Assembly: GCA_002748065.1 (NCBI GenBank)
Contig: PDRJ01000025.1
Coordinates: forward strand, 22,454-86,453
DNA length: 64,000 nt
DNA from: Bacteroidota bacterium
GTDB lineage: Bacteria > Bacteroidota > Bacteroidia > Bacteroidales > BM520
Direction of reading: 5' to 3'
Shown piece after piece: positions 1,795-61,241 of this stretch. Each line of letters opens with the position of its first letter. Positions within the stretch are counted from its first letter, which is position 1. Made by a program: the position numbers and the translations under genes. The notes under the pieces were generated by a model. It was not told where the DNA came from. It searched no databases and saw nothing but the letters and a program-made list of their open reading frames with translations.

Positions 1795-1860
1795 TAGAGG
1801 CTGTTTGGAAAGTCCGACTTCTTCGTTATGCTTCTCTTCAAAATGGTTGTTTTAGCCCGA
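1795..1860 (+). repeat. Diverged copy (C) of the R1 MITE-like repeat, 5' part
   Basis: tagaggctgtttggaaagtccgacttcttcgttatgcttctcttcaaaatggtt aligns with the first ~65 nt of R1 (tagaggctgtctataaagtccgacttcttcgttacgcttctcttccaaatggtt). Weaker similarity (tcgaatacgttcg) continues to about 1950. Confidence 0.6.
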
Positions 1861-2025: not shown

Positions 2026-3939
2026 CTACTTCACCTCTTCAAAGTCCACGTCAGTGACCTCATCGCCACCTCCCTGAGCTTTTGATTGTGAGGTATCCGG
2101 GTTGGGGTTAGGCTGCTGCCCTCCCTGTTGTGCCTCTTGTGTTGCCTTGTAGATCTCTTCACTGGCAGCCTGCCAAGCACTGTTTAGCTTCTCGCTGGCA
2201 GCGTCAATGGCCGTCAGGTCTTGTGCCTTATGAGCCTCTTTGAGCTCGGCTAAGGCTGCTTCAATGGGCGCCTTCTTCTCTGCCGGAACCTTGTCGCCAT
2301 ACTCTTTCAGCTGTTTCTCTGTTTGGAAAATCAGCGCATCGGCATTGTTGATCTTATCGATTTTTTCCTTCTCTTTCTTGTCCGCTTCGGCATTGGCTTC
2401 CGCTTCCGCTTTCATCTTGTTGATCTCCTCTTCGGAGAGGCCGGAGGAGGCTTCAATACGGATGTTTTGCGATTTACCGGTTCCTTTGTCTTTGGCGGTT
2501 ACATTGAGGATTCCGTTGGCATCAATGTCGAAGGTTACCTCAATTTGAGGGATCCCTCTTGGAGCGGGGGGGATGCCGTCAAGGTGGAAGCGGCCGATAC
2601 TTTTGTTTTGGTTAGCCATGGGGCGCTCCCCCTGGAGGATGTGAATCTCCACAGAGGGCTGGTTATCCGCTGCGGTAGAGAAGACCTCTGATTTTTTCGT
2701 AGGGATGGTTGTATTGGACTCAATGAGTTTGGTGAATACGCCTCCCAGGGTTTCAATACCCAGTGAGAGGGGCGTTACATCCAGCAGGAGAACATCTTTA
2801 ACCTCTCCGGTGAGGACTCCTCCCTGGATGGCAGCACCTACGGCCACAACTTCATCCGGGTTAACGCCTTTGGAGGGCTTCTTTCCGAAGAATTTCTCTA
2901 CCACTTCCTGGATAGCCGGGATACGGGTGGATCCTCCCACGAGAATCACTTCGTTGATATCCGATGCGGACATGCCGGCATCAGCCAGGGCTTTTTTACA
3001 GGGTTCGATGGTGGCACGGATCAATGAATCAGCCAGTTGTTCGAACTTCGCCTTGGAAAGTGTGCGGACGAGGTGTTTGGGAATCCCGTTTACCGGCATG
3101 ATATAGGGAAGGTTGATCTCTGTCGTATTGCTGCTGGAGAGTTCAATCTTGGCCTTTTCTGCCGCCTCTTTCAGGCGTTGCAATGCCATGGGATCCTTGC
3201 GCAGGTCGATGTTCTCGTCTGCCATAAACTCCTCTGCCAACCAGTCGATAATGACTTGGTCGAAGTCATCACCACCCAAGTGGGTATCTCCATTGGTGGA
3301 TTTTACTTCAAAAACGCCATCACCCAATTCCAGGATAGAGATATCGAAGGTTCCTCCTCCAAGGTCGAAAACAGCGATTTTGATGTCGCCCAGCTTTTTA
3401 TCCAGGCCGTATGCCAGGGAAGCAGCCGTGGGCTCGTTGATGATGCGGCGCACCTTAAGTCCTGCAATCTCGCCGGCCTCTTTGGTTGCTTGACGCTGGG
3501 AGTCGGAGAAATAGGCAGGAACGGTGATAACCGCCTCGGTAACCTCTTGTCCCAAGTAATCTTCGGCTGTTTTCTTCATCTTTTGAAGAACCATGGCGCT
3601 GATCTCCTGGGGGGTATATTTACGATCTTTGATCTCCACACGAGGCGTGTTGTTATCGCCTTTGACCACCTTGTAGGGAACTCGGTTAACCTCTTTGGAC
3701 ACTCTGTCAAAGGTCTCTCCCATAAACCGTTTTATGGAGAAGATGGTTTGTTGTGGATTGGTAATGGCTTGACGCTTTGCAGGATCTCCCACTTTACGTT
3801 CTCCATTTTCCGTGAATGCGACGATGGAAGGCGTGGTTCTACGTCCTTCCGAATTTGGAATTACCACCGGTTCGTTACCCTCCATTACAGAAACGCAAGA
3901 GTTGGTTGTTCCCAAATCAATGCCAATAATTTTTCCCAT
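2026..3939 (-). CDS. dnaK: Molecular chaperone DnaK (Hsp70)
   Basis: 637 aa. [24 protein letters not shown] and the full Hsp70 architecture are present. Confidence 0.98.
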
Positions 3940-4130
3940 TATACTATTTTTTTAGATTAAACGCTTTTTTTTATGCTTCCTGTTGGTCAAGGATTATGCC
4001 AAAGGATTTACCCCTCCCTTCTCCCGTTATAAAAGGGGGAGGTAGGTTGATCTAAATAGTTGATAAGTAATATTTTATGTGGTTTTTATGAGGGGTGGCA
4101 GCGGGGTGACAAATCGTCATTTTCCCCGCT

Positions 4131-5165
4131 CTATTTGTTGTCAGGGTTGACAAACTTTAACAAGAAGTAGTCTTTCCAAAGGGTATTGGAGGATGTTTCA
4201 CTGAGGTAGAAGGCCCGTTCTTTATCATATCGGGCGGAGAATATACCGATACCGTTCTCAATGTTTGTGTAGGTGGGGCGCTCCTGTACAATGGAGAGAG
4301 AGGGCTCATTAACTTCCATGTAGGTGTTGAACTGCTCTTCTGCAACTTGGAAGGTAAAGACGATCTGTCCGGCATAACGTTTTTCGACCCGTTCTTCCAT
4401 GGCCTCATCGGCATAGGGGATTTCCTTGTTAAGCCACCTCCAAAAGGATTGTGTTACAAAATCGAAGTTCAATTCCTCTCCACCATTGGCGTTGGCAGAT
4501 TTTCGCGTGGGGAAACTTCGCCATACAATGCTTTTCTTTACAGGTATGTCACTTCCTTTCATAACCTCCTCGTAGTTGAAGGTGAGGTAGACCTCATACC
4601 TACGCCCATTTTTGGAAGATAGGATGGAAACCGCCTTGGTGTACTCATTGTCCAATATGTTGATGGTAGGGTGTGTGATATTGTTGATACGGGGCTGTTG
4701 GATTATCATGTTTTCATCCACCAAAGGGGTTTCTGCGGTAATGAGTTTTCCCGTTTTCGGATTGCGGATAACTAACTTGTAGGTATTCTGATCAGAGAGC
4801 ATCTGGTGGGTTACCGCCCGATAGATTTGTTGGGCATCGGAATAGAAGATCCCCTCTTCCTTGTGGTATATGGTGGTGGTATCGAAATCAATTTTTTTGA
4901 TGAAATTTCCTTCGTGGTACTCCTCGATAGAGACCTCTAATTTATGTGGGTATTCCGATGAATCGGAGATACGGGCATAGCTCAGGGCATTACCTCCTCC
5001 TAAAAAGGCCTTGGTAATCTTGATGTAGGAGATGGAGTCGTTGGGGTTTAATAATCCGTAAACGACGGTAATCTCTTTCCATTCGCCAATGGTAGAAACT
5101 TCGTTATCACAGGCTAAGAAGCCCATGGATAGCAGTATGGATAGAAGGATGTAGATTCGTTTCAT
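4131..5165 (-). CDS. Hypothetical lipoprotein (possibly DUF4249-like)
   Basis: 344 aa with a lipoprotein signal MKRIYILLSILLSMGFLAC (lipobox Cys19). I recognise no catalytic motif. The family assignment comes from loose recollection only. Confidence 0.65.
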   Translation of the reverse strand: MKRIYILLSILLSMGFLACDNEVSTIGEWKEITVVYGLLNPNDSISYIKITKAFLGGGNALSYARISDSSEYPHKLEVSIEEYHEGNFIKKIDFDTTTIYHKEEGIFYSDAQQIYRAVTHQMLSDQNTYKLVIRNPKTGKLITAETPLVDENMIIQQPRINNITHPTINILDNEYTKAVSILSSKNGRRYEVYLTFNYEEVMKGSDIPVKKSIVWRSFPTRKSANANGGEELNFDFVTQSFWRWLNKEIPYADEAMEERVEKRYAGQIVFTFQVAEEQFNTYMEVNEPSLSIVQERPTYTNIENGIGIFSARYDKERAFYLSETSSNTLWKDYFLLKFVNPDNK

Positions 5166-40857: not shown

Positions 40858-43800
40858 CTATTGTGCTAATGTGAATCGTATACTAATCCCTGAGTTAATG
40901 GTTGAATTGGGATATTGTCCTCCCACATACGGTTTCGTCAGCATCTGTTGATCATAGAAGAGACGCAGCGTAAGATTTCTATTCATTTGATAGTCTGCCG
41001 AAGTGTTGATACTGAAGATTCGTTGTCCGGCGGAGGCTTGGTTGACCTCTTCGTCCAGTCGTCGTAGCATGGTCTTGTTATCACGCATGGAGAAATCAAT
41101 CTTCACGTTAAGGTCACTCTTTACACGGCTTTTCTTTCCGCTGCCACCAATGGTTCGAATGGTAAACTGGACATCCTGAAAGCGGTATCCTAAGCCAATG
41201 GTGTATTCACTGCTCTTCATCTCTGTAAGCTGGTTGTTGACAAAACTCAGGGAGAGATTGCGGGATTTCTTGATCTCAAAACGTGCTAATAAGCTGTTTA
41301 CCATTGTGATGTCAAAGTTAATCAGTGGAGCAAACTGCTCTGAGATGGTCACCACATTCATGAGGTTTTCCGAGATATAGTTTCCGGCATCATCAATGGC
41401 TGACGGGTAGCCGAAGAGCTCCTCATACAACAGGTTGGTTTGGTACGAACCGATGTTAAAGGTGGATTTATAGCTATGTGTGATGTTGATGTTTCTAAAA
41501 TATTTCTTGATCCATGGGATTTGTGTGAGCCCATTCCAGGTGAGCCTCCAGTTAGGCATGGGAATAACGGGGAATGAGTTTAATCCTACACTGCCGGGAT
41601 CTTTTCCTGTGTAGGCACTGATAAATGCAGGGATGAGTACATCTTGCTGTGTGGGGCCGTAACCCAGGGGGAAACTTCTTCCTGAGATGGAGTCAGTCTG
41701 CATCGGTTTACCGGCATCCACCCAGTTTCTATTATTCTCTGCAATCCTCATGGCAATCTGCTGACGGCTTTTCTTCATCTGTTCGAAGTTGAGGGATTTC
41801 TTATGGTCTAACTCATCTTTTCCAAATGCTGTTCCCCAGGAGATGATGGAGACGGAGTAAGAGCCGGAGTGCCCTGCGGCATAGGATTGGAACTGGCCGG
41901 TGGGGTCAGCCTTAAAGATCTCTCGATGGTTCTCCATGGTTCTCTTGGTTCCCGTGATTTCAAACCTGAAGTTCTTAAAGGGTTCGTAGTTCAGGCGGTA
42001 ATTTATGTTCTCTGAGAAGTTATTGAAGAACTGCGCGTTGTTAAGGGTATCCCGGGAAAGCCAGTCATTTTCCACAGAACGTTGACGAATATCTTGCGTC
42101 AGGGCAAAGACATAATCAAAACCCGGTGCCTGGGATCTTCTGTTTACCCCGAGAATGTCCGGCTCCGGCATAAATCCGGGCATGAGGTTCCCGCTATTTC
42201 GGGTATAGGAGAGGGAGACACTTTTTAAGCCAAAAATGATCCTCAGAAGCCCGTCAAAGCCCTCTTTCACAAAGTTGATTTTCGGCCTCTCCCTCCTTAA
42301 GGAGTCTTGGGTTTGTCCCGGATCATCGGGATTGATGCGCTCCGCTCTTTTCCGTTGTCGGCTTTTATTCTTGCCTCGCTTGCTCTTTCCCAAATCCTTG
42401 ACATAGGGAATGTTTTTGAAGAGAGTACCCACCTGGAGGTTCGCATTAGCTGTCACATTCCGGGAGTTCTCCACCGTGTTGCCCAGGGTGGATTGGATAG
42501 ATTGGGGAGAAGCTTGCCAACGATAGGTCGCATCATATCGAAGCGTAAGACCTACCCATCGCATCAAAGGAAGTTTATTGATGGGCACATTCCACGTTGC
42601 CTTGACATTTTGGTTGTAACTATTCATGGAACCAAAGCTTTGGAGTTGCCTGAGGATACTGTCTCTTTGGGGGCGTCCAGGTGGTTCATTAATGTAAGAG
42701 AGGGCACTGGCCGAGAAATCAAGCTTGATGGATTGTGCCAAATCGTACTTCAAATTGTAAAGGCGTTGCCAGTCAAACTTCTTCATGTAGGTCGGATCAA
42801 TAAGGATGCTTCCCCGACTCTTATTTCTCAGCTTCTTCTCGATGAATTGCCGATCAAGATCTGTTCGGAAGGAGAACATCTTGGGCAGCAGGTAGAAGTT
42901 AAAGTCGCCAATAAGGGCAAAGGCTCTTTTTTTGAGAAACTTAACCTTTCCAAAGGGCTTAATTTGTTTGGGTTGTGTGCTAAAGTTATAGCCCAGGCCG
43001 CCCCGATACTGCTTCCGAACATCGTATTCAATATCAATATTTCGGTGGAATATTTCGGAGTAGGAGTAGGAGACGTCAAAGTTAGAGATATCCCAAGGCA
43101 TAGGGGGGCGGGAAGATCCATCTTCTCGTACTTTGCTGGTTCGATCTTTTCGTACATTCACCAGGTTGATATTCTTCCTTAAGGTGTAGTCCTGGGTTTT
43201 TTCTCGCAGGGAATCCCGTCCCTTGGCATCTAACATGGCCAGGTCATCCTTTAGGAAGATATCCGGATCCAAGGGGTTATACTCTGGCGAGAGCCGTGAC
43301 TCTGAGATATCGAAGTGCAGGGGAATCTTGAGCCCCGATTTTTCGCCAAAAAATTTGCCCACTTCAAGGTTCGTGGCGATATCCCAGTTCGTGGTGGTCT
43401 CTTTAGCGCGTTCGTTGACCTTTTTTTCGATGGAACCAAACCCCGGTGTACTATATAATCCGGAAATGGAGAGGTTCCCAATATCTGCGAGGTTGGTGTT
43501 TAAACGGGCTGTAGCTGCCCAGCCTCCCGACTCGTCAAAATCGGTCATGCGGAGCTCGTTGATCCAAATATCGGCACTCATGGGGAGGCCATCGTCAGGA
43601 TCGGAGAGAAGCTGTTTCTTGGGGTTTCGAACCCCCACCATGATCACCCGGATATCACTGAGGCTGGGGGTCCCAATGACCGTGATTTTATTCTTCCCAT
43701 CATTCTCCCAGTAGGGGGTGTGGTATGAGACGTTGGAGCCGGGATCCGCGATGAGTGCATTTCGGTTCTGTTTTACGTTTACCAACTCTTCCATATGGAT

Positions 43801-53337: not shown

Positions 53338-53390
53338 GAGAAGTAAGGAGATGATGAAGACCGCTGGTTTTTTTACCAGCATAAATGCAT

Positions 53391-53456
53391 AAAAGCGAGA
53401 AGGCTTACTGCCGGTACCCTATCGGGGAAACTCTGGCAGCAAGCCTTCTCGCTTTT
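53391..53456. terminator. Long bidirectional hairpin between permease and osmC (convergent)
   Basis: aaaagcgagaaggcttactgcc ... ggcagcaagccttctcgctttt: a 22-bp stem with one G-U position, a 22-nt loop, and A/T tails within the stem ends. Confidence 0.7.
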
Positions 53457-53477
53457 ATTAAACAATATCCTAATGGA

Positions 53478-55597: not shown

Positions 55598-55598
55598 A

Positions 55599-55772
55599 TA
55601 GAGTCCGTCTATAACGTCCGACTTCTTCGTTACGCTTCTCTTCCAAATGGTTCTTTCGGCTTTGCTCAACACATCGCATTTACCCTAGTAAACTCCCCTA
55701 TTTCAGCCTTCGCAAGCCTCGAATTCGAACGTTCTATACAGCCTCTTCTCAAAACGCTGACTTTATGGACAG
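55599..55772 (+). mobile_element. R1 MITE-like repeat, copy A (174 bp)
   Basis: Aligns without gaps to the reverse complement of 58842-59015, with 9 mismatches in 174 and the last 86 nt identical. 14-bp terminal inverted repeats (c)CGTCTATAACGTC / GACTTTATGGACAG. No ORF. Confidence 0.7.
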
Positions 55773-57379
55773 TCTTGTGGGGTAGAGGAAGAGACGGGGA
55801 TCGTCCGCACGGGGAGATAGACCATTCCTTTACAGAGGTAAACATACTTTTTTTTGGCAATCTTTCGGCCTCGCCTGATGCAGATGGAGTCATAACAGGT
55901 GATCTCTTTAAAAAGTCCCTTGTACTGAGTATCTGGTTTGAAGTAATCCTGAGGGTCGTGGATGGCCCAGCCATTCATCCCCCTTTGGAAGGGGCCTCGC
56001 TCTTCGTTGATCCAGGCGTATTTGTGGAGTCTTGGCAGGAGGTTTATTCCCATTACCTCGATGCCTGCGTCGTGCGCAAAATAGTATTCGTAGTTGGCGG
56101 CGGGAAACCAACGGTGTGAAAAGATGGGCGCCTCTGCTTCCATCACTCCCTCTGCAAGAGCTCTTTGTCGAATTGCGCGAAACTGTCGTCCCTCTTCATC
56201 CCAGCCGTAAAGGTCGAGTGTGGGATCCGGAAGGTGGTAGGTGGTTAAGGGGATAAAACCGGTTTTGATCTGAATCCAGGAGACGGTTAAAAACAGACAT
56301 AGTGAGAGGAGAGCGGTGCGAATCCCCCGGGGAATAAGGTTGTGGTTTTGCTGTTTCCAATGATCAAAACGGCAGGCTGTGAGGATCATCAGGGGGAAGA
56401 ATGCCGGACCCGTCCAATGGGGAAGGGTTCGCCTTGAGAGGGCTATGCCCCAAAAGAGCAGTATCATGGGGATACTCAGCAGCAGAAGGAGCCGCTGCGT
56501 GTTTTTGGGACAAAAGGATTTTCCTCTTACGAGATGGATCAGGGTGATCACCATCAGCACCACCACCACCGGATTGTTGTAGAAGAATTCGCCCACGATC
56601 TCCAGCAGAAAAAAGTCCAACCGGATACCCTCAAAGGTGGCCCTGCTGCCCTGAAAGGTGAAGCTGACAAAATGATACTGCCTATTCCAGAGGATCACCG
56701 GGGAGAAGAGAAGGAGGGAGAGAAGTCCTGAGAGGTAGAGGGCAATCTTCTTTAACCAGGGCCTGTTGTAAAGTAGCACGTACAATCCGACCCCCGCCCA
56801 CAGGTAGGTGGCTGTATACTTTGAGAGCATCCCCAGGCCGGTGAAAAGGCCAGCCAATAGCATCTTCTTTCCCGCTCCTCGCTCTTCCGGGTTCCCGGTA
56901 AGCGGATCGTGAAAGAAATAGAGCGCCGCAAGCCAGAAAAGCATCTGGGGCGCATCAGGAAGGATGAAGAGCCCCGCAATGATGGAGGCATAACCCGAGG
57001 CCGAGAAGAGCAATGCCGCATAAAAGCCGGCTCTGGGGGAACGGATTTTTTCCGTTAAGAGGTAGAGGAACCAGGTGGCTCCAGCAGCTGATAAAATGGC
57101 GCTGAGACGGATGAAAATCTCGTGGCGTAGAAGCAAATTCAGGGAGGAAAGTTGAATAAATAGCCCCGTCATCGGGGGATGGTCGAAGTGGCTCCAGTCG
57201 GGAAACATGGCGTAAAGGATGTAATAGACCTCGTCATTGCCAAGATCCGTAGTCGCCGCTGGAAAGAGCTTAAGAAGGAGAGCCAGCCCTATCACCACCA
57301 GGGTTAACCGACGAAATCGTTTCCGTTGCTGATCTTTTTTTATCGCCATGTGATCCATGTTCAATTCTCCATTCGTCAT
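55763..57379 (-). CDS. GT-C fold glycosyltransferase, family 39 / ArnT-PMT-like
   Basis: 538 aa, polytopic. The first loop carries LGNDEVYY (DE motif) followed by FDHPPM, typical of ArnT/PMT_2 enzymes. The start (57379 or a downstream ATG) is uncertain. The last three codons (TGT CCA TAA) lie inside R1 copy A. Confidence 0.85.
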   Translation of the reverse strand: MTNGELNMDHMAIKKDQQRKRFRRLTLVVIGLALLLKLFPAATTDLGNDEVYYILYAMFPDWSHFDHPPMTGLFIQLSSLNLLLRHEIFIRLSAILSAAGATWFLYLLTEKIRSPRAGFYAALLFSASGYASIIAGLFILPDAPQMLFWLAALYFFHDPLTGNPEERGAGKKMLLAGLFTGLGMLSKYTATYLWAGVGLYVLLYNRPWLKKIALYLSGLLSLLLFSPVILWNRQYHFVSFTFQGSRATFEGIRLDFFLLEIVGEFFYNNPVVVVLMVITLIHLVRGKSFCPKNTQRLLLLLSIPMILLFWGIALSRRTLPHWTGPAFFPLMILTACRFDHWKQQNHNLIPRGIRTALLSLCLFLTVSWIQIKTGFIPLTTYHLPDPTLDLYGWDEEGRQFRAIRQRALAEGVMEAEAPIFSHRWFPAANYEYYFAHDAGIEVMGINLLPRLHKYAWINEERGPFQRGMNGWAIHDPQDYFKPDTQYKGLFKEITCYDSICIRRGRKIAKKKYVYLCKGMVYLPVRTIPVSSSTPQDCP

Positions 57380-57441
57380 TGCCAGTTGCTTCGCAAACTT
57401 TGAGTTTCATCCGTCTGTATCTTAATAGCCGTTGGCTATTG

Positions 57442-57591
57442 GCCTTTAGTTTGGGTTAATGGCAACGTTCACAAAAAGTTATCACTCAACTTCCGTCTTC
57501 CGACTTCTGTCTTCTGTCTTCGGACTTCGGTCTCCCGACTTCCGACTTCCGACTTCATTACCATATCGCCGCATTATCACATTACCACATT
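57442..57591 (-). repeat. R2 composite repeat, copy 1
   Basis: Read on the minus strand: TGGTAATGTGATAATGCGG, then 10 heptads, then TTTTTGTGAACGTTGCCATTAACCCAAACTAAAGGC. The last block matches 61190-61225 at 33 of 36 positions. Confidence 0.65.
57490..57559. repeat. Imperfect 7-bp tandem array, 10 units (CTTCCGA consensus)
   Basis: cttccgt cttccga cttctgt cttctgt cttcgga cttcggt ctcccga cttccga cttccga cttcatt. Confidence 0.85.
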
Positions 57592-57616
57592 AAAAAAATT
57601 ACTAATTGCTAATTCC

Positions 57617-58747
57617 CTATCGGTAGAAGTCGAAAATTGCCTGGATCACATAATCGATCTCCTGTTCCGTTAAGGCGTAGAAAAGGGGCAATCGGATAAG
57701 GGCCTGAGAGAATCGCTCCGCATGGGGTAGCGAGGAGGTGCCGTATGTTCGGCGGTAGTACGGACTGTGATGCAATGCCTGGTAGTGGAAAACTGCCTGG
57801 ATCCCCCTGCTATGCAGATGGTGAAGAAGCCGATCTCGCTCTTCTCTTGATTTGGCTACCATATAAAAGAGGTGTCCGTTAAGGCTGGCAAAAGCGGGAA
57901 GTTGGGGCAATAGAAGGTTTTCGCGTTCTTGCAGCGGCCTGAGCCCGCTGGCATAGCGTTCCCAATGGCGAATCCTTCGTGCCTGAATGGGGTCAACCTC
58001 CTCCATTTGAGCACAAAGGCACGCTCCGGTGAGGTCGGAGGGAAGGAAGGAGGAACCCACATCAACCCACTCATACTTTTGCACCTCTTTGCGCTGAAAG
58101 GCTGCTCTGTTAGTGCCCTTCTCCCAGATGATCTCTGCCCGTTCACACAGGCGCTCGTCGTTAACGAGCAGCATGCCTCCCTCTCCGGTGATGATGTTTT
58201 TTGTTTCGTGGAATGAGAGCGCTCCGAGCTGCCCAATACTTCCCAGGGGTTTGCCCTTGTACGTTGCTTCAATGCTGTGGGCAGCATCTTCCACCACCTT
58301 CAGGCCGTGGGCTTCAGCAATGGCAAGGATGGCCTCCATATCGTTGGCTACACCGCCGTAGTGCATAACCAGGATCGCTTTGGTTTGGGGGGTGATCAGG
58401 CGCTCCAATGTGCCAATATCCATGTTGGGATGCTCTGGCATACTGTCAACGAAGACCACCCTGGCACCCCGCAGCACAAAGGCGTTGGCCGAGGAGACAA
58501 AGGTGTAGGACGGCATGATGACCTCGTCACCCGGCCCGATCTCAAAAAGGAGAGCCGCCATTTCCAGGGCATCGGTGCAACTGGTGGTGAGCAGGCTCCT
58601 GGTCACGCCATACCGGTTACAGAATAGCGCTTGGGCGCGCCGTGTGTAGGGACCATTGCCCGAGAGTTGCCCCTGCATGGCCGCCTGTACAAGGTATTGT
58701 TGTTCCTTTCCGGTGAAATGAGGCTTGTTGAACGGTATCTGCATCAT
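57617..58747 (-). CDS. DegT/DnrJ/EryC1-family PLP aminotransferase, WecE-like (dTDP-4-amino-4,6-dideoxyhexose synthesis)
   Basis: 376 aa. MMQIPFNKPHFTGKE, SCTDALEMAALL, IMPSYTFVSSANAFVLRGARVVFVD and SFHETKN (PLP lysine) closely recall E. coli WecE/RffA. Confidence 0.88.
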   Translation of the reverse strand: MMQIPFNKPHFTGKEQQYLVQAAMQGQLSGNGPYTRRAQALFCNRYGVTRSLLTTSCTDALEMAALLFEIGPGDEVIMPSYTFVSSANAFVLRGARVVFVDSMPEHPNMDIGTLERLITPQTKAILVMHYGGVANDMEAILAIAEAHGLKVVEDAAHSIEATYKGKPLGSIGQLGALSFHETKNIITGEGGMLLVNDERLCERAEIIWEKGTNRAAFQRKEVQKYEWVDVGSSFLPSDLTGACLCAQMEEVDPIQARRIRHWERYASGLRPLQERENLLLPQLPAFASLNGHLFYMVAKSREERDRLLHHLHSRGIQAVFHYQALHHSPYYRRTYGTSSLPHAERFSQALIRLPLFYALTEQEIDYVIQAIFDFYR

Positions 58748-58765: not shown

Positions 58766-58773
58766 CAAAGGTA
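58766..58773 (-). promoter_or_regulatory. Candidate -7 promoter box (TACCTTTG) for the aminotransferase gene
   Basis: TAnnTTTG match on the minus strand, 18 nt upstream of the ATG at 58747, between R1 copy B and the gene. Confidence 0.4.
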
Positions 58774-58841
58774 ACGCTTTTCCCCCTCTCGTTTCATGAT
58801 TGCATGAAAAAAACCTACGGCGTTTAGCCGCTATACTAGTG

Positions 58842-59015
58842 TCTGTCCATAAAGTCAGCGTTTTGAGAAGAGGCTGTATAGAACGTTCGAATTCGAGGCT
58901 TGCGAAGGCTGAAATAGGGGAGTTTACTGAGGCAAATGCGATGTATTGAGCAACGCCGAAATAACCATTTGGAAGAGAAGCGTAACGAAGAAGTCGGACT
59001 TTATAGACAGCCTCT
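58842..59015 (-). mobile_element. R1 MITE-like repeat, copy B (174 bp, inverted relative to copy A)
   Basis: Reverse complement equals copy A at 165 of 174 positions. TIRs CTGTCTATAAAGTC / GACTTTATGGACAG pair over 14 bp (one G-T position). No ORF. Confidence 0.75.
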
Positions 59016-59069
59016 ATGCTAGCCGCTAACTGTGAGGGGTTGGTCTCTACAGCACAACCGATTTCGTGG

Positions 59070-59109
59070 CCGCATTATCACATTACCATATTATCCCCAT
59101 TATCACATT
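59070..59109 (-). repeat. GTGATAATG-motif block (19-nt identity with 57569-57587)
   Basis: CCGCATTATCACATTACCA is identical at 59070-59088 and 57569-57587. A second cattatcacatt follows at 59098-59109, directly after the era stop. Confidence 0.6.
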
Positions 59110-61115: not shown

Positions 61116-61225
61116 AGTGTGATTATGCATGAAGAAATGGAGTTGGAAGTCGGAAGTCGGAAGACGGAAGACGGGAGTTGGAAGACAATTTTTTGTGAAC
61201 ATTGCCATTAACCCAAGCCAAAGGC
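61116..61225 (+). repeat. R2 composite repeat, copy 2
   Basis: GTGTGATTATGC, then 7 heptads, then TTTTTGTGAACATTGCCATTAACCCAAGCCAAAGGC. It has the same module order and the same orientation relative to the downstream gene as copy 1. Confidence 0.65.
61137..61185. repeat. Imperfect 7-bp tandem array, 7 units (CGGAAGT consensus)
   Basis: atggagt tggaagt cggaagt cggaaga cggaaga cgggagt tggaaga. This is the reverse-complement register of the 57490-57559 array. Confidence 0.8.
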
Positions 61226-61241
61226 TACAAAATAGAAACAG

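Follow-up and report, generated by a model that had tools for sequence, protein, structure and literature searches.

A heptanucleotide array upstream of a GT39 gene is probably one copy of a dispersed, length-variable mosaic repeat family in a Bacteroidota genome

Between a DegT-family aminotransferase gene and a GT39 gene of an uncultured Bacteroidota bacterium lies a non-coding array of imperfect heptanucleotides, and its position upstream of a gene for surface modification raises the question of whether it is a device dedicated to that gene or an instance of something more general. The window analyzed here is a 64,000-nucleotide stretch of contig PDRJ01000025.1 (assembly GCA_002748065.1). 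An earlier interpretation of its letters (the sequence-only reading) had suggested that such an array might vary in length and change promoter geometry, or might serve as an array of protein-binding sites. We favor, at a probability of about two in three (0.68), the explanation that this module, R2, is one copy of a dispersed family of mosaic non-coding repeats, in which slippage or recombination lengthens and shortens the micro-arrays.

By sequence reading, the spacer between the aminotransferase stop codon and the start of the longest GT39 ORF measures 237 nt and has the three-part build previously ascribed to it: on the minus strand a 5′ part, TGGTAATGTGATAATGCGG, is followed by ten imperfect GGAAGWC heptads and by a 36-nt block, TTTTTGTGAACGTTGCCATTAACCCAAACTAAAGGC, beyond which there is a hairpin. 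Resolved further, the order is GGAATTAGCAATTAGTAATT, a T-run, AATGTGGTAATGTGATAATGCGGCGATATGGTAATG, the ten heptads, TTGAGTGATAAC, the 36-nt block and CCAATAGCCAACGGCTATT (the hairpin); coordinates are collected in Table 1. Tandem Repeats Finder delimits the array as 57489-57556 (period 7, 9.7 copies, 81% matches, score 73), and three perfect units occupy 57536-57556. A two-heptad pattern matches the window 16 times against 5.7 expected, with 14 of the 16 matches inside the arrays of R2 and of its sister copy, R1. The core block occurs twice in the 64 kb (57451-57477 on the minus strand and 61190-61216 on the plus strand), and no occurrence is expected in shuffled sequence. The distance of 62 nt that had been given from the block to the GT39 start is correct for the longest ORF, but GT39 homologues begin at the residue aligned with M11 (MAIKKD versus MEIKKA), 10 codons inside that ORF; the start is therefore probably at 57349, and the block would then end 92 nt upstream. 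The hairpin is likewise present, but its letters belong to a fourth short array (CTAAAGG CCAATAG CCAACGG), which varies among the other copies. The CAAC/TAAC of the R2 connector can pair with GTTG in the core.

Table 1. Positions of R2, its neighbors and related repeats (window coordinates unless a locus is named).
Feature	Position	Strand	Remark
GT39/PMT_2 gene, longest ORF	55763-57379	minus	locus tag CSA95_03530
Probable true GT39 start codon (M11 of longest ORF)	57347..57349	minus	homologue alignment
Leftover leader-type right end (GATACAGACGGATGAAAC; cf. ...TAGAAACAGATGAAA in start-codon-abutting copies)	57404..57421	minus	comparison of copies
Hairpin aatagcc-gtt-ggctatt	57424-57440	minus	sequence reading
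Trailing CYAAMRG heptads (CTAAAGG CCAATAG CCAACGG CTATT)	57424..57448	minus	here form 7-bp hairpin
Conserved 36-nt core block TTTTTGTGAACGTTGCCATTAACCCAAACTAAAGGC	57442..57477	minus	near-invariant in 36 copies
Connector TTGAGTGATAAC, one of three family types	57478..57489	minus	sequence comparison of copies
GGAAGWC heptad array, 10 imperfect units (plus strand cttccgt ... cttcatt)	57490..57559	minus	Tandem Repeats Finder and reading
AATGTGRT octamer tract and conserved junction GCGGCGATATGGTAATG	57556..57591	minus	25-nt stretch recurs at 59069-59093
Remnant of family promoter-like box (TAATTTTT)	57592..57604	minus	1 mismatch to Bacteroidota −7 motif TAnnTTTG
AATTAGN heptads (GGAATTAG CAATTAG TAATT), first module	57597..57616	minus	directly 3′ of aminotransferase stop
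Aminotransferase gene, DegT family	57617-58747	minus	stop codon 57617-57619
R1, leader type, whole sister copy	61116..61241	plus	abuts ATG (61242) of 135-aa lipoprotein gene
R1 heptads, 6 units	61145-61186	plus	after junction
R1 core	61190-61225	plus	then right end TACAAAATAGAAACAG to ATG
MITE-like element copies	58824-59029, 55598-55772, 1795-1852		also L006, L010, L012, L019, L021
~57-nt tandem repeat	L012 about 3900-4580	oriented (minus)	
~57-nt tandem repeat	L016 2340-2700; L020 1850-2200		

Aligned with each other, the modules R1 and R2 form an inverted repeat of 85 nt with 81% complementarity, and Tandem Repeats Finder places the R1 array at 61141-61184 (6.3 copies, 83% matches). The sequence-only reading had seen the same three-part architecture at 61116-61225; heptads and core do recur there, but the first part is only loosely shared (GTGTGATTATGCATG). 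Apart from R1 and R2, the only piece of the family in the window is an octamer-only fragment (59069-59093). This fragment forms a 25-nt direct repeat (96%) with 57568-57592 of R2, so that the aminotransferase gene and one MITE-like element are bracketed by direct repeats. Extended to 59109, the fragment reads AATGTGAT AATGGGGAT AATATGGT AATGTGAT AATGCGGCC and lies directly after the gene for the Era GTPase.

Other repeats are also found in the window. A second dispersed repeat is MITE-like and about 175-206 bp long, and its terminal inverted repeats measure 33 nt (TTAGCCGCTA...CTGTCCATAAAGTC). Two of its copies, 95% identical and in opposite orientations, flank the aminotransferase-GT39 pair, with a partial third copy 57 kb away, and its copies are indel-rich between two metagenomes. 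Two intergenic inverted repeats are probably terminators: a perfect 19-nt palindrome with a 2-nt loop at 1960-1999, and a repeat with 24-nt arms (96%) at 53389-53458.

A metagenome scan with the core pattern, in which 22 exact bases were required, returned 21 exact matches at 16 further loci, all of them in PDWI01/PDWJ01. When up to 5 mismatches were allowed, these 16 loci and the two of the window amounted to 36 copies, so that the family has at least 36 members. Conservation of the core far exceeds that expected of neutral repeat DNA. The ascertainment on 22 exact bases accounts for part of this excess, but the 15 extra copies, detected solely by adjacency, mostly show no more than 1-2 base differences in the core. 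A scan of a genome collection with GTGAACNTTGCCATTAACCC, in which the source species was not matched, gave a single match in Pseudoalteromonas where about 4 chance matches are expected. By exact look-up, at least 7 of 10 flanking proteins carry the CSA95_ tags of the window's MAG; for 2 more of the 10 the NCBI MAG protein accessions belong to that series, and CSA04_ counterparts of some exist in a sibling MAG.

None of the copies overlaps a long ORF in the table of ORFs for these loci. The module sits before or after unrelated genes and also in gene-free tandem arrays. By our own reading of that table, it points the same way as its upstream neighbor in about 12 of 18 cases and as its downstream neighbor in about 9 of 12; three elements face the 3′ end of a gene that converges on them.

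The order of the modules is identical in all 36 copies. An initial (AATTAGN)1-5 tract is followed by TTGTTTGAAAATCATATAATTA with a TAnnTTTG-like box and then TTTTAAATG; by (AATGTGRT)1-13 octamers; by a junction, GCGGCGATATGGTAATG and/or GGAATGATTATAGGGAC (also given as GGCGATATGGTAATG or GGAATGATTATAGGGAC); by ([G/C]GAAG[A/T]C)n heptads; by one of three connectors, GGGGAGCAACTT, GAGTGATAACTT or GACAATTT; by the near-invariant core, TTTGTGAACGTTGCCATTAACCCAAGC; and by a (CYAAMRG)1-5 tract. The heptad arrays of 34 distinct copies comprise 2-14 units (median 4), that of R2 being the third longest. Within 180 units GAAG is invariant, as the parsing rule partly enforces, and positions 1, 6 and 7 vary. 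This invariance would be compatible with an array of protein-binding sites, at the level of either DNA or RNA.

The copies end in different ways. Those of the terminator type close with CCGGTAAG-GCCCC-GTA-GGGGC-GACACC-TTTTTT and often stand head to tail after genes (2-5 units in L011, L012, L015, L016 and L020). Their 5-bp GC hairpin occurs as GCCCC/GGGGC, GCTCC/GGAGC and ACCCC/GGGGT, with few mismatched forms; these variants are compensatory, which argues that the stem is selected. A ~57-nt tandem hairpin repeat (ACCTTTGTAACAG-N-CCCCCTCCTCCCCCCAAAGCCCCGGAGGGGCGAC) is interleaved with some units, and each of its repeats ends in the same covarying hairpin. Copies of the leader type, on the other hand, start near ACATCCATGAC and adjoin the start codon of a gene, ending in TAGAAACAG (also given as GGCTACAAAATAGAAACAG) followed immediately by ATGAAA. 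In four independent cases (R1, L007, L010/L021 and L019) this ATG is the annotated gene start, and the distance from core to ATG is 50, 50, 50, 57 or 71 nt, in steps of 7. The products of the downstream genes (lipoprotein, methyltransferase-like, HicB-like and porin-like) are mutually unrelated, which rules out paralogy of those genes as the cause of the shared upstream sequence. R2 itself lacks both the hairpin and T-run of the terminator type and about 24 nt (GTTTGAAAATCATATAATTATCTT) of the promoter-like segment found in full copies. It is a hybrid, with a terminator-type left half, the GAGTGATAACTT connector, the core, three trailing heptads and a decayed leader-type end.

The family is present many times in one genome, at intergenic sites unrelated to each other; its modules keep a fixed order, an internal one differs in copy number, and partial and hybrid forms exist. 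These features place it among dispersed mosaic repeats. No terminal inverted repeats or target-site duplications were found in the family, and no linked transposase, so that it does not classify as a MITE: its left ends (CAATTAG... or ACATCCATGAC...) do not form inverted repeats with its right ends (...ACACCTTTTTT or ...AAACAGATGAAA), in contrast to the neighboring ~206-bp element with its 33-nt inverted termini. No description of the family was found in the literature searched.

Several known systems share parts of this design. The BOX elements of Streptococcus pneumoniae and the BIME/REP mosaics of Enterobacteria are modular dispersed intergenic repeats in which the number of middle modules differs from copy to copy; REPs are associated with RAYT (Y1) transposases. 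They include hairpins that act on transcripts and, like the present family, form clusters or tandem mosaics after genes, but their modules are palindromic and 35-60 nt long, whereas those described here are 7-8-nt microsatellites. Heptanucleotide STRR arrays of heterocystous cyanobacteria were reportedly described by Mazel and colleagues in 1990. Like the arrays found here, STRRs are tandem 7-nt units dispersed in non-coding DNA, including between co-transcribed genes; they differ in phylum and unit sequence and are not described inside a fixed multi-module element with a core. Between the co-transcribed hupS and hupL genes their function is unsettled, with transcript stability and translational coupling having been proposed (PMC2670836). 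A further parallel is BrickBuilt of Porphyromonas gingivalis, a MITE/minisatellite of leader-VNTR-tail design that occurs in 19 intergenic copies with 1-22.8 units and shows promoter activity (PMC4596501). It too resides in a Bacteroidota host, is always intergenic and present in tens of copies per genome, and joins a conserved leader, an imperfect variable tandem array and a conserved tail; partial forms are common, and transcription signals lie in it or are affected by it. BrickBuilt differs in having a single array of 23-nt units (versus four 7-8-nt arrays around a core here) and small terminal inverted repeats (none found here), and there is no sequence similarity between the two; neither abutment on start codons nor promoter-to-terminator tandem units have been reported for it.

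The expectation that the array can vary in length is borne out, both between two independent assemblies (10 versus 9 units) and across the paralogous arrays described above. An identical GT39 protein is encoded on an 87-kb contig and, in MAG GCA_002747205.1 ('Bacteroidetes bacterium', CSA95_), on a contig of 24,277 nt. When that MAG contig, PDTZ01000045.1, was compared with the window along its full ~24 kb, the two differed at only three places. One is a mismatch, 4 nt short of the contig end; another is an indel of 1 nt at 42355, by which SprA is frameshifted in the MAG; and the third is a clean 7-nt indel in the perfect CTTCCGA run of R2, which counts 3 perfect units in the window (10 in total) and 2 in the MAG (9 in total). 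The indel at 42355 is probably an error in the MAG; SprA has 2418 aa in the window and is split into 1938 + 492 aa in GCA_002747205.1. The shorter R1 array is the same in both assemblies. A 7-nt change within the longest perfect run would be the expected signature of slippage, although it is a comparison of two consensus sequences and not proof of polymorphism in a population, and it could be an assembly or consensus difference instead of a fixed strain difference.

Larger changes are seen elsewhere in the family. L009 and L011 represent one locus in two metagenomes; they are 99.94% identical up to a breakpoint inside a heptad tract, beyond which they are two whole units apart (2 versus 4 tandem units; L009 12700-13058 versus L011 1-800). 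This difference indicates either that recombination between tracts also occurs or that assemblers collapse the tracts. No Logan contigs carrying R2 were found. Logan contigs of SRR6011893 and SRR6011892 (L004 and L005; window 61205 and 61220) start inside the R1 core, which indicates that the element breaks short-read assemblies.

An exact TAnnTTTG box (TACCTTTG) is located on the minus strand at 58766..58773, 18 nt 5′ of the aminotransferase ATG, and is likely to be the promoter of a transcript comprising the aminotransferase gene, R2 and GT39. No Bacteroidota −33/−7 pair brackets the R2 array, around which there are only TAnnTTTG boxes with 1 mismatch and without a TTG partner, and no minus-strand terminator-like site was found within R2. 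Lacking a full promoter box and a terminator, R2 would most likely be transcribed from the aminotransferase promoter as an intercistronic leader of GT39. These observations speak against the suggestion that the array alters promoter geometry; with no −33/−7 pair around it, the array is likelier to be intercistronic or leader RNA. A near-consensus −7 box, AAAGTTTG, is present at 57394-57401, upstream of the longest GT39 ORF. Scans for sigma-70 promoters and for terminators gave no enrichment, and comparison of the core by eye with the Bacteroidota −33/−7, sigma-54 and CRP half-site consensus sequences gave no convincing match.

The tract also lies outside any reading frame, as no ORF of 60 aa or longer crosses the spacer. 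A small frame running through the heptads (ATGGTAATGAAG...TGA) was rejected as coding, since it cannot be conserved when unit numbers differ by non-multiples of 3. Folding of R2, on either strand, was no better than that of shuffled sequences (z about −0.7), and the same was true of the full unit. Pairing of the junction GGUAAUG with CCAUUAACC in the core, as seen in minimum free energy folds, was rejected because the variants (GGTGATG and GGTAACG; GCAACTAAC or GCAGTTAAC in the core) do not covary. Covariation for a 4-bp CAAC/GUUG stem with UUUUUGUGAAC as its loop was weak, its score being reached by 6 of 500 shuffles, and may be taken as a hint only of a stem-loop in the core. Searches against Rfam (gathering score, or E of at most 1) found no relevant family in the window, where a tRNA-Met was the only match, and a single chance-level match (E = 0.53) in L011, L012, L016 and L020.

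In the two nearest available relatives, whose GT39 proteins are 65% and 62% identical to that of the window, the R2 module is absent. Both have instead a 405-aa gene without Pfam domains that overlaps the GT39 start (L022 2793-4010 and L023 2793-4010); this gene is missing from the window, and R2 fills its position. The idea of a device specific to a surface-modification gene is thus not upheld: the same module stands at unrelated genes and in gene-free arrays, and the relatives do without it. One relative (L023, GCA_964474455.1) has different purine-rich heptads (GGTGGAA/GGTGAAA, five units) just after the orthologous aminotransferase gene. No alignment was found between R2 and that spacer; on the opposite strand there are short collinear words, TATTTTGTTTTAA and GGCGATATGGT, at E values of 0.2-0.8, which are a hint at most. 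The family words TATTTTGTTTTAA and TGGCGATATGGT occur on that strand, separated by a 10-nt repeat (CGCAAAGTTT); heptads and words together take up 1969-2003 and 2133-2192 of L023. This array region may be a distant relative of the element.

We believe the best account of R2 to be the dispersed mosaic repeat already named. Its unit number would change through replication slippage inside perfect runs, and unequal recombination between the tracts of neighboring units could alter it as well; together the two processes would generate copies with anything from 2 to 14 units, R2 having 10 or 9 in the population. R2 would be transcribed from the aminotransferase promoter as part of the GT39 leader, and its unit number would affect GT39, if it does so at all, via the length or content of that leader and not via promoter spacing.

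The absence of a mobility mechanism, the conservation of the core, the orientation bias and the ends lying exactly at start codons suggest a selected function (as promoter, leader or RNA) over mere selfish or neutral DNA. That the family is more than junk is argued by its near-invariant core and its orientation bias, by the promoter-to-terminator grammar and the covarying hairpin of its tandem units, and by the leader ends that fall on start codons; these features lead to two functional alternatives, in which the family would act either through titration between small RNAs and leaders or as a portable promoter and leader.

The first of these, which we hold to be doubtful, is a network at the RNA level, in which terminator-type units would be sRNA genes that titrate a putative factor for mRNA leaders of the R1/R2 type. 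CsrB/RsmZ-type sponge sRNAs, which bind CsrA/RsmA through closely spaced GGA motifs, provide the model: here as there, many close GGA motifs lie in a small non-coding unit ended by a terminator, and the motif is found in mRNA leaders too. The sRNA units and the leaders would share a binding partner, either a protein that recognizes single-stranded RNA or a molecule that pairs with the core, and the titrated factor would control translation or stability of GT39 and other leader-bearing genes. The layout of the units (promoter-like box, repeats with core, hairpin with T-run, head to tail after genes) and the compensatory hairpin variants are consistent with such genes, but conservation of the box and terminator may be due to descent only, and the spacing from TTG to TAnnTTTG is below consensus. 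R2 RNA has no excess structure, as would be expected of single-stranded binding tracts; in Csr sRNAs, by comparison, the GGA motifs lie in hairpin loops. The constancy of GAAG amid variable positions 1, 6 and 7 would suit a binding motif, with the reservation that the unit-parsing rule enforces part of it. The orientation bias, the position of the leader-type cores 50-71 nt before start codons and the weak CAAC/GUUG covariation also point this way. Against this, no relevant Rfam match was found in the window or in the four loci searched, no candidate binder emerged, and CsrA is not known in Bacteroidales.

Taken to its full extent, the RNA-level network would constitute a post-transcriptional titration system new to Bacteroidota, which we consider improbable. 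Tandem sRNAs would compete for a putative RNA-binding factor with the leaders of GT39, the lipoprotein, the porin-like protein, the HicB-like antitoxin and others; the (AAUGUGRU)n, (GGAAGWC)n and (CYAAMRG)n tracts would be unstructured around an invariant core, and tract slippage would tune binding copy by copy.

The second alternative, to which we also assign a low probability, treats core and right end as an outward promoter for an alternative sigma factor, joined to a translation-initiation region, both of which the element would donate to whichever gene follows; the heptads would form an activating or binding array upstream, and its length would set the output. That four unrelated genes start at the element's ATGAAA, with NCBI gene calls using that ATG and the core a short distance upstream, is what such a cassette would produce, and segments of BrickBuilt do have promoter activity (PMC4596501). 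The TTG..GAAC of the core recalls, in our own reading, the −35 elements of ECF sigma factors; however, on neither strand does the core resemble the Bacteroidota TTTG/TAnnTTTG or the sigma-54 TGGCAC-N5-TTGC consensus, and sigma-70-type matches are not enriched. Most copies, moreover, are of the terminator type, in which the core is followed by a terminator and no gene, three elements face a convergent 3′ end, and R2 has a decayed right end at a distance of 45-70 nt from the probable GT39 start.

A third explanation draws on the (ATCTTTC)n tracts of hmw1A and hmw2A in Haemophilus influenzae, which are phase-variable and transcribed in the leader (PMC12721329). These are likewise 7-nt simple sequence repeats upstream of a surface-related gene, with unit numbers that vary in the population, but they are perfect, have at least 11 units, form a long hairpin with a G-rich arm that is cleaved by RNase III and are locus-specific, while the tract described here consists of imperfect units, lacks a complementary arm and recurs at more than 30 loci. 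A contingency switch of this kind, in which fast heptad slippage would set GT39 activity (lipid A or surface glycosylation), is very unlikely and the least likely of the alternatives: the 9 versus 10 units in two assemblies of one population, the probably transcribed position upstream of a surface-modification gene and the precedent of a transcribed 7-nt repeat in the hmw 5′-UTR (PMC12721329) are outweighed by an array only 81% matched, without the long perfect tract of contingency loci (its maximum of 3 perfect units makes high-frequency switching unlikely), by the recurrence of the tract at unrelated sites, by the lack of a complement for an hmw-like hairpin and by the absence of the module from the orthologous site.

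The evidence thus gives no support to a phase switch tailored to a glycosyltransferase for lipid A or the surface; GT39 instead lies behind a single member of a family spread through the genome. This family is unusual in setting four different variable 7-8-nt tracts around one near-invariant core, in comprising both promoter-to-terminator tandem units and leaders that end at the start codons of unrelated genes, and in what appears as unit-number polymorphism in a natural population, accompanied by copy-number changes of whole units from one sample to another. In practical terms, it also causes MAG assemblies to break. If transcribed, it would be a candidate for titration between sRNAs and leaders in a phylum without Hfq/CsrA-type paradigms; if not, it would provide a clean natural case of microsatellite dynamics within a bacterial dispersed repeat.
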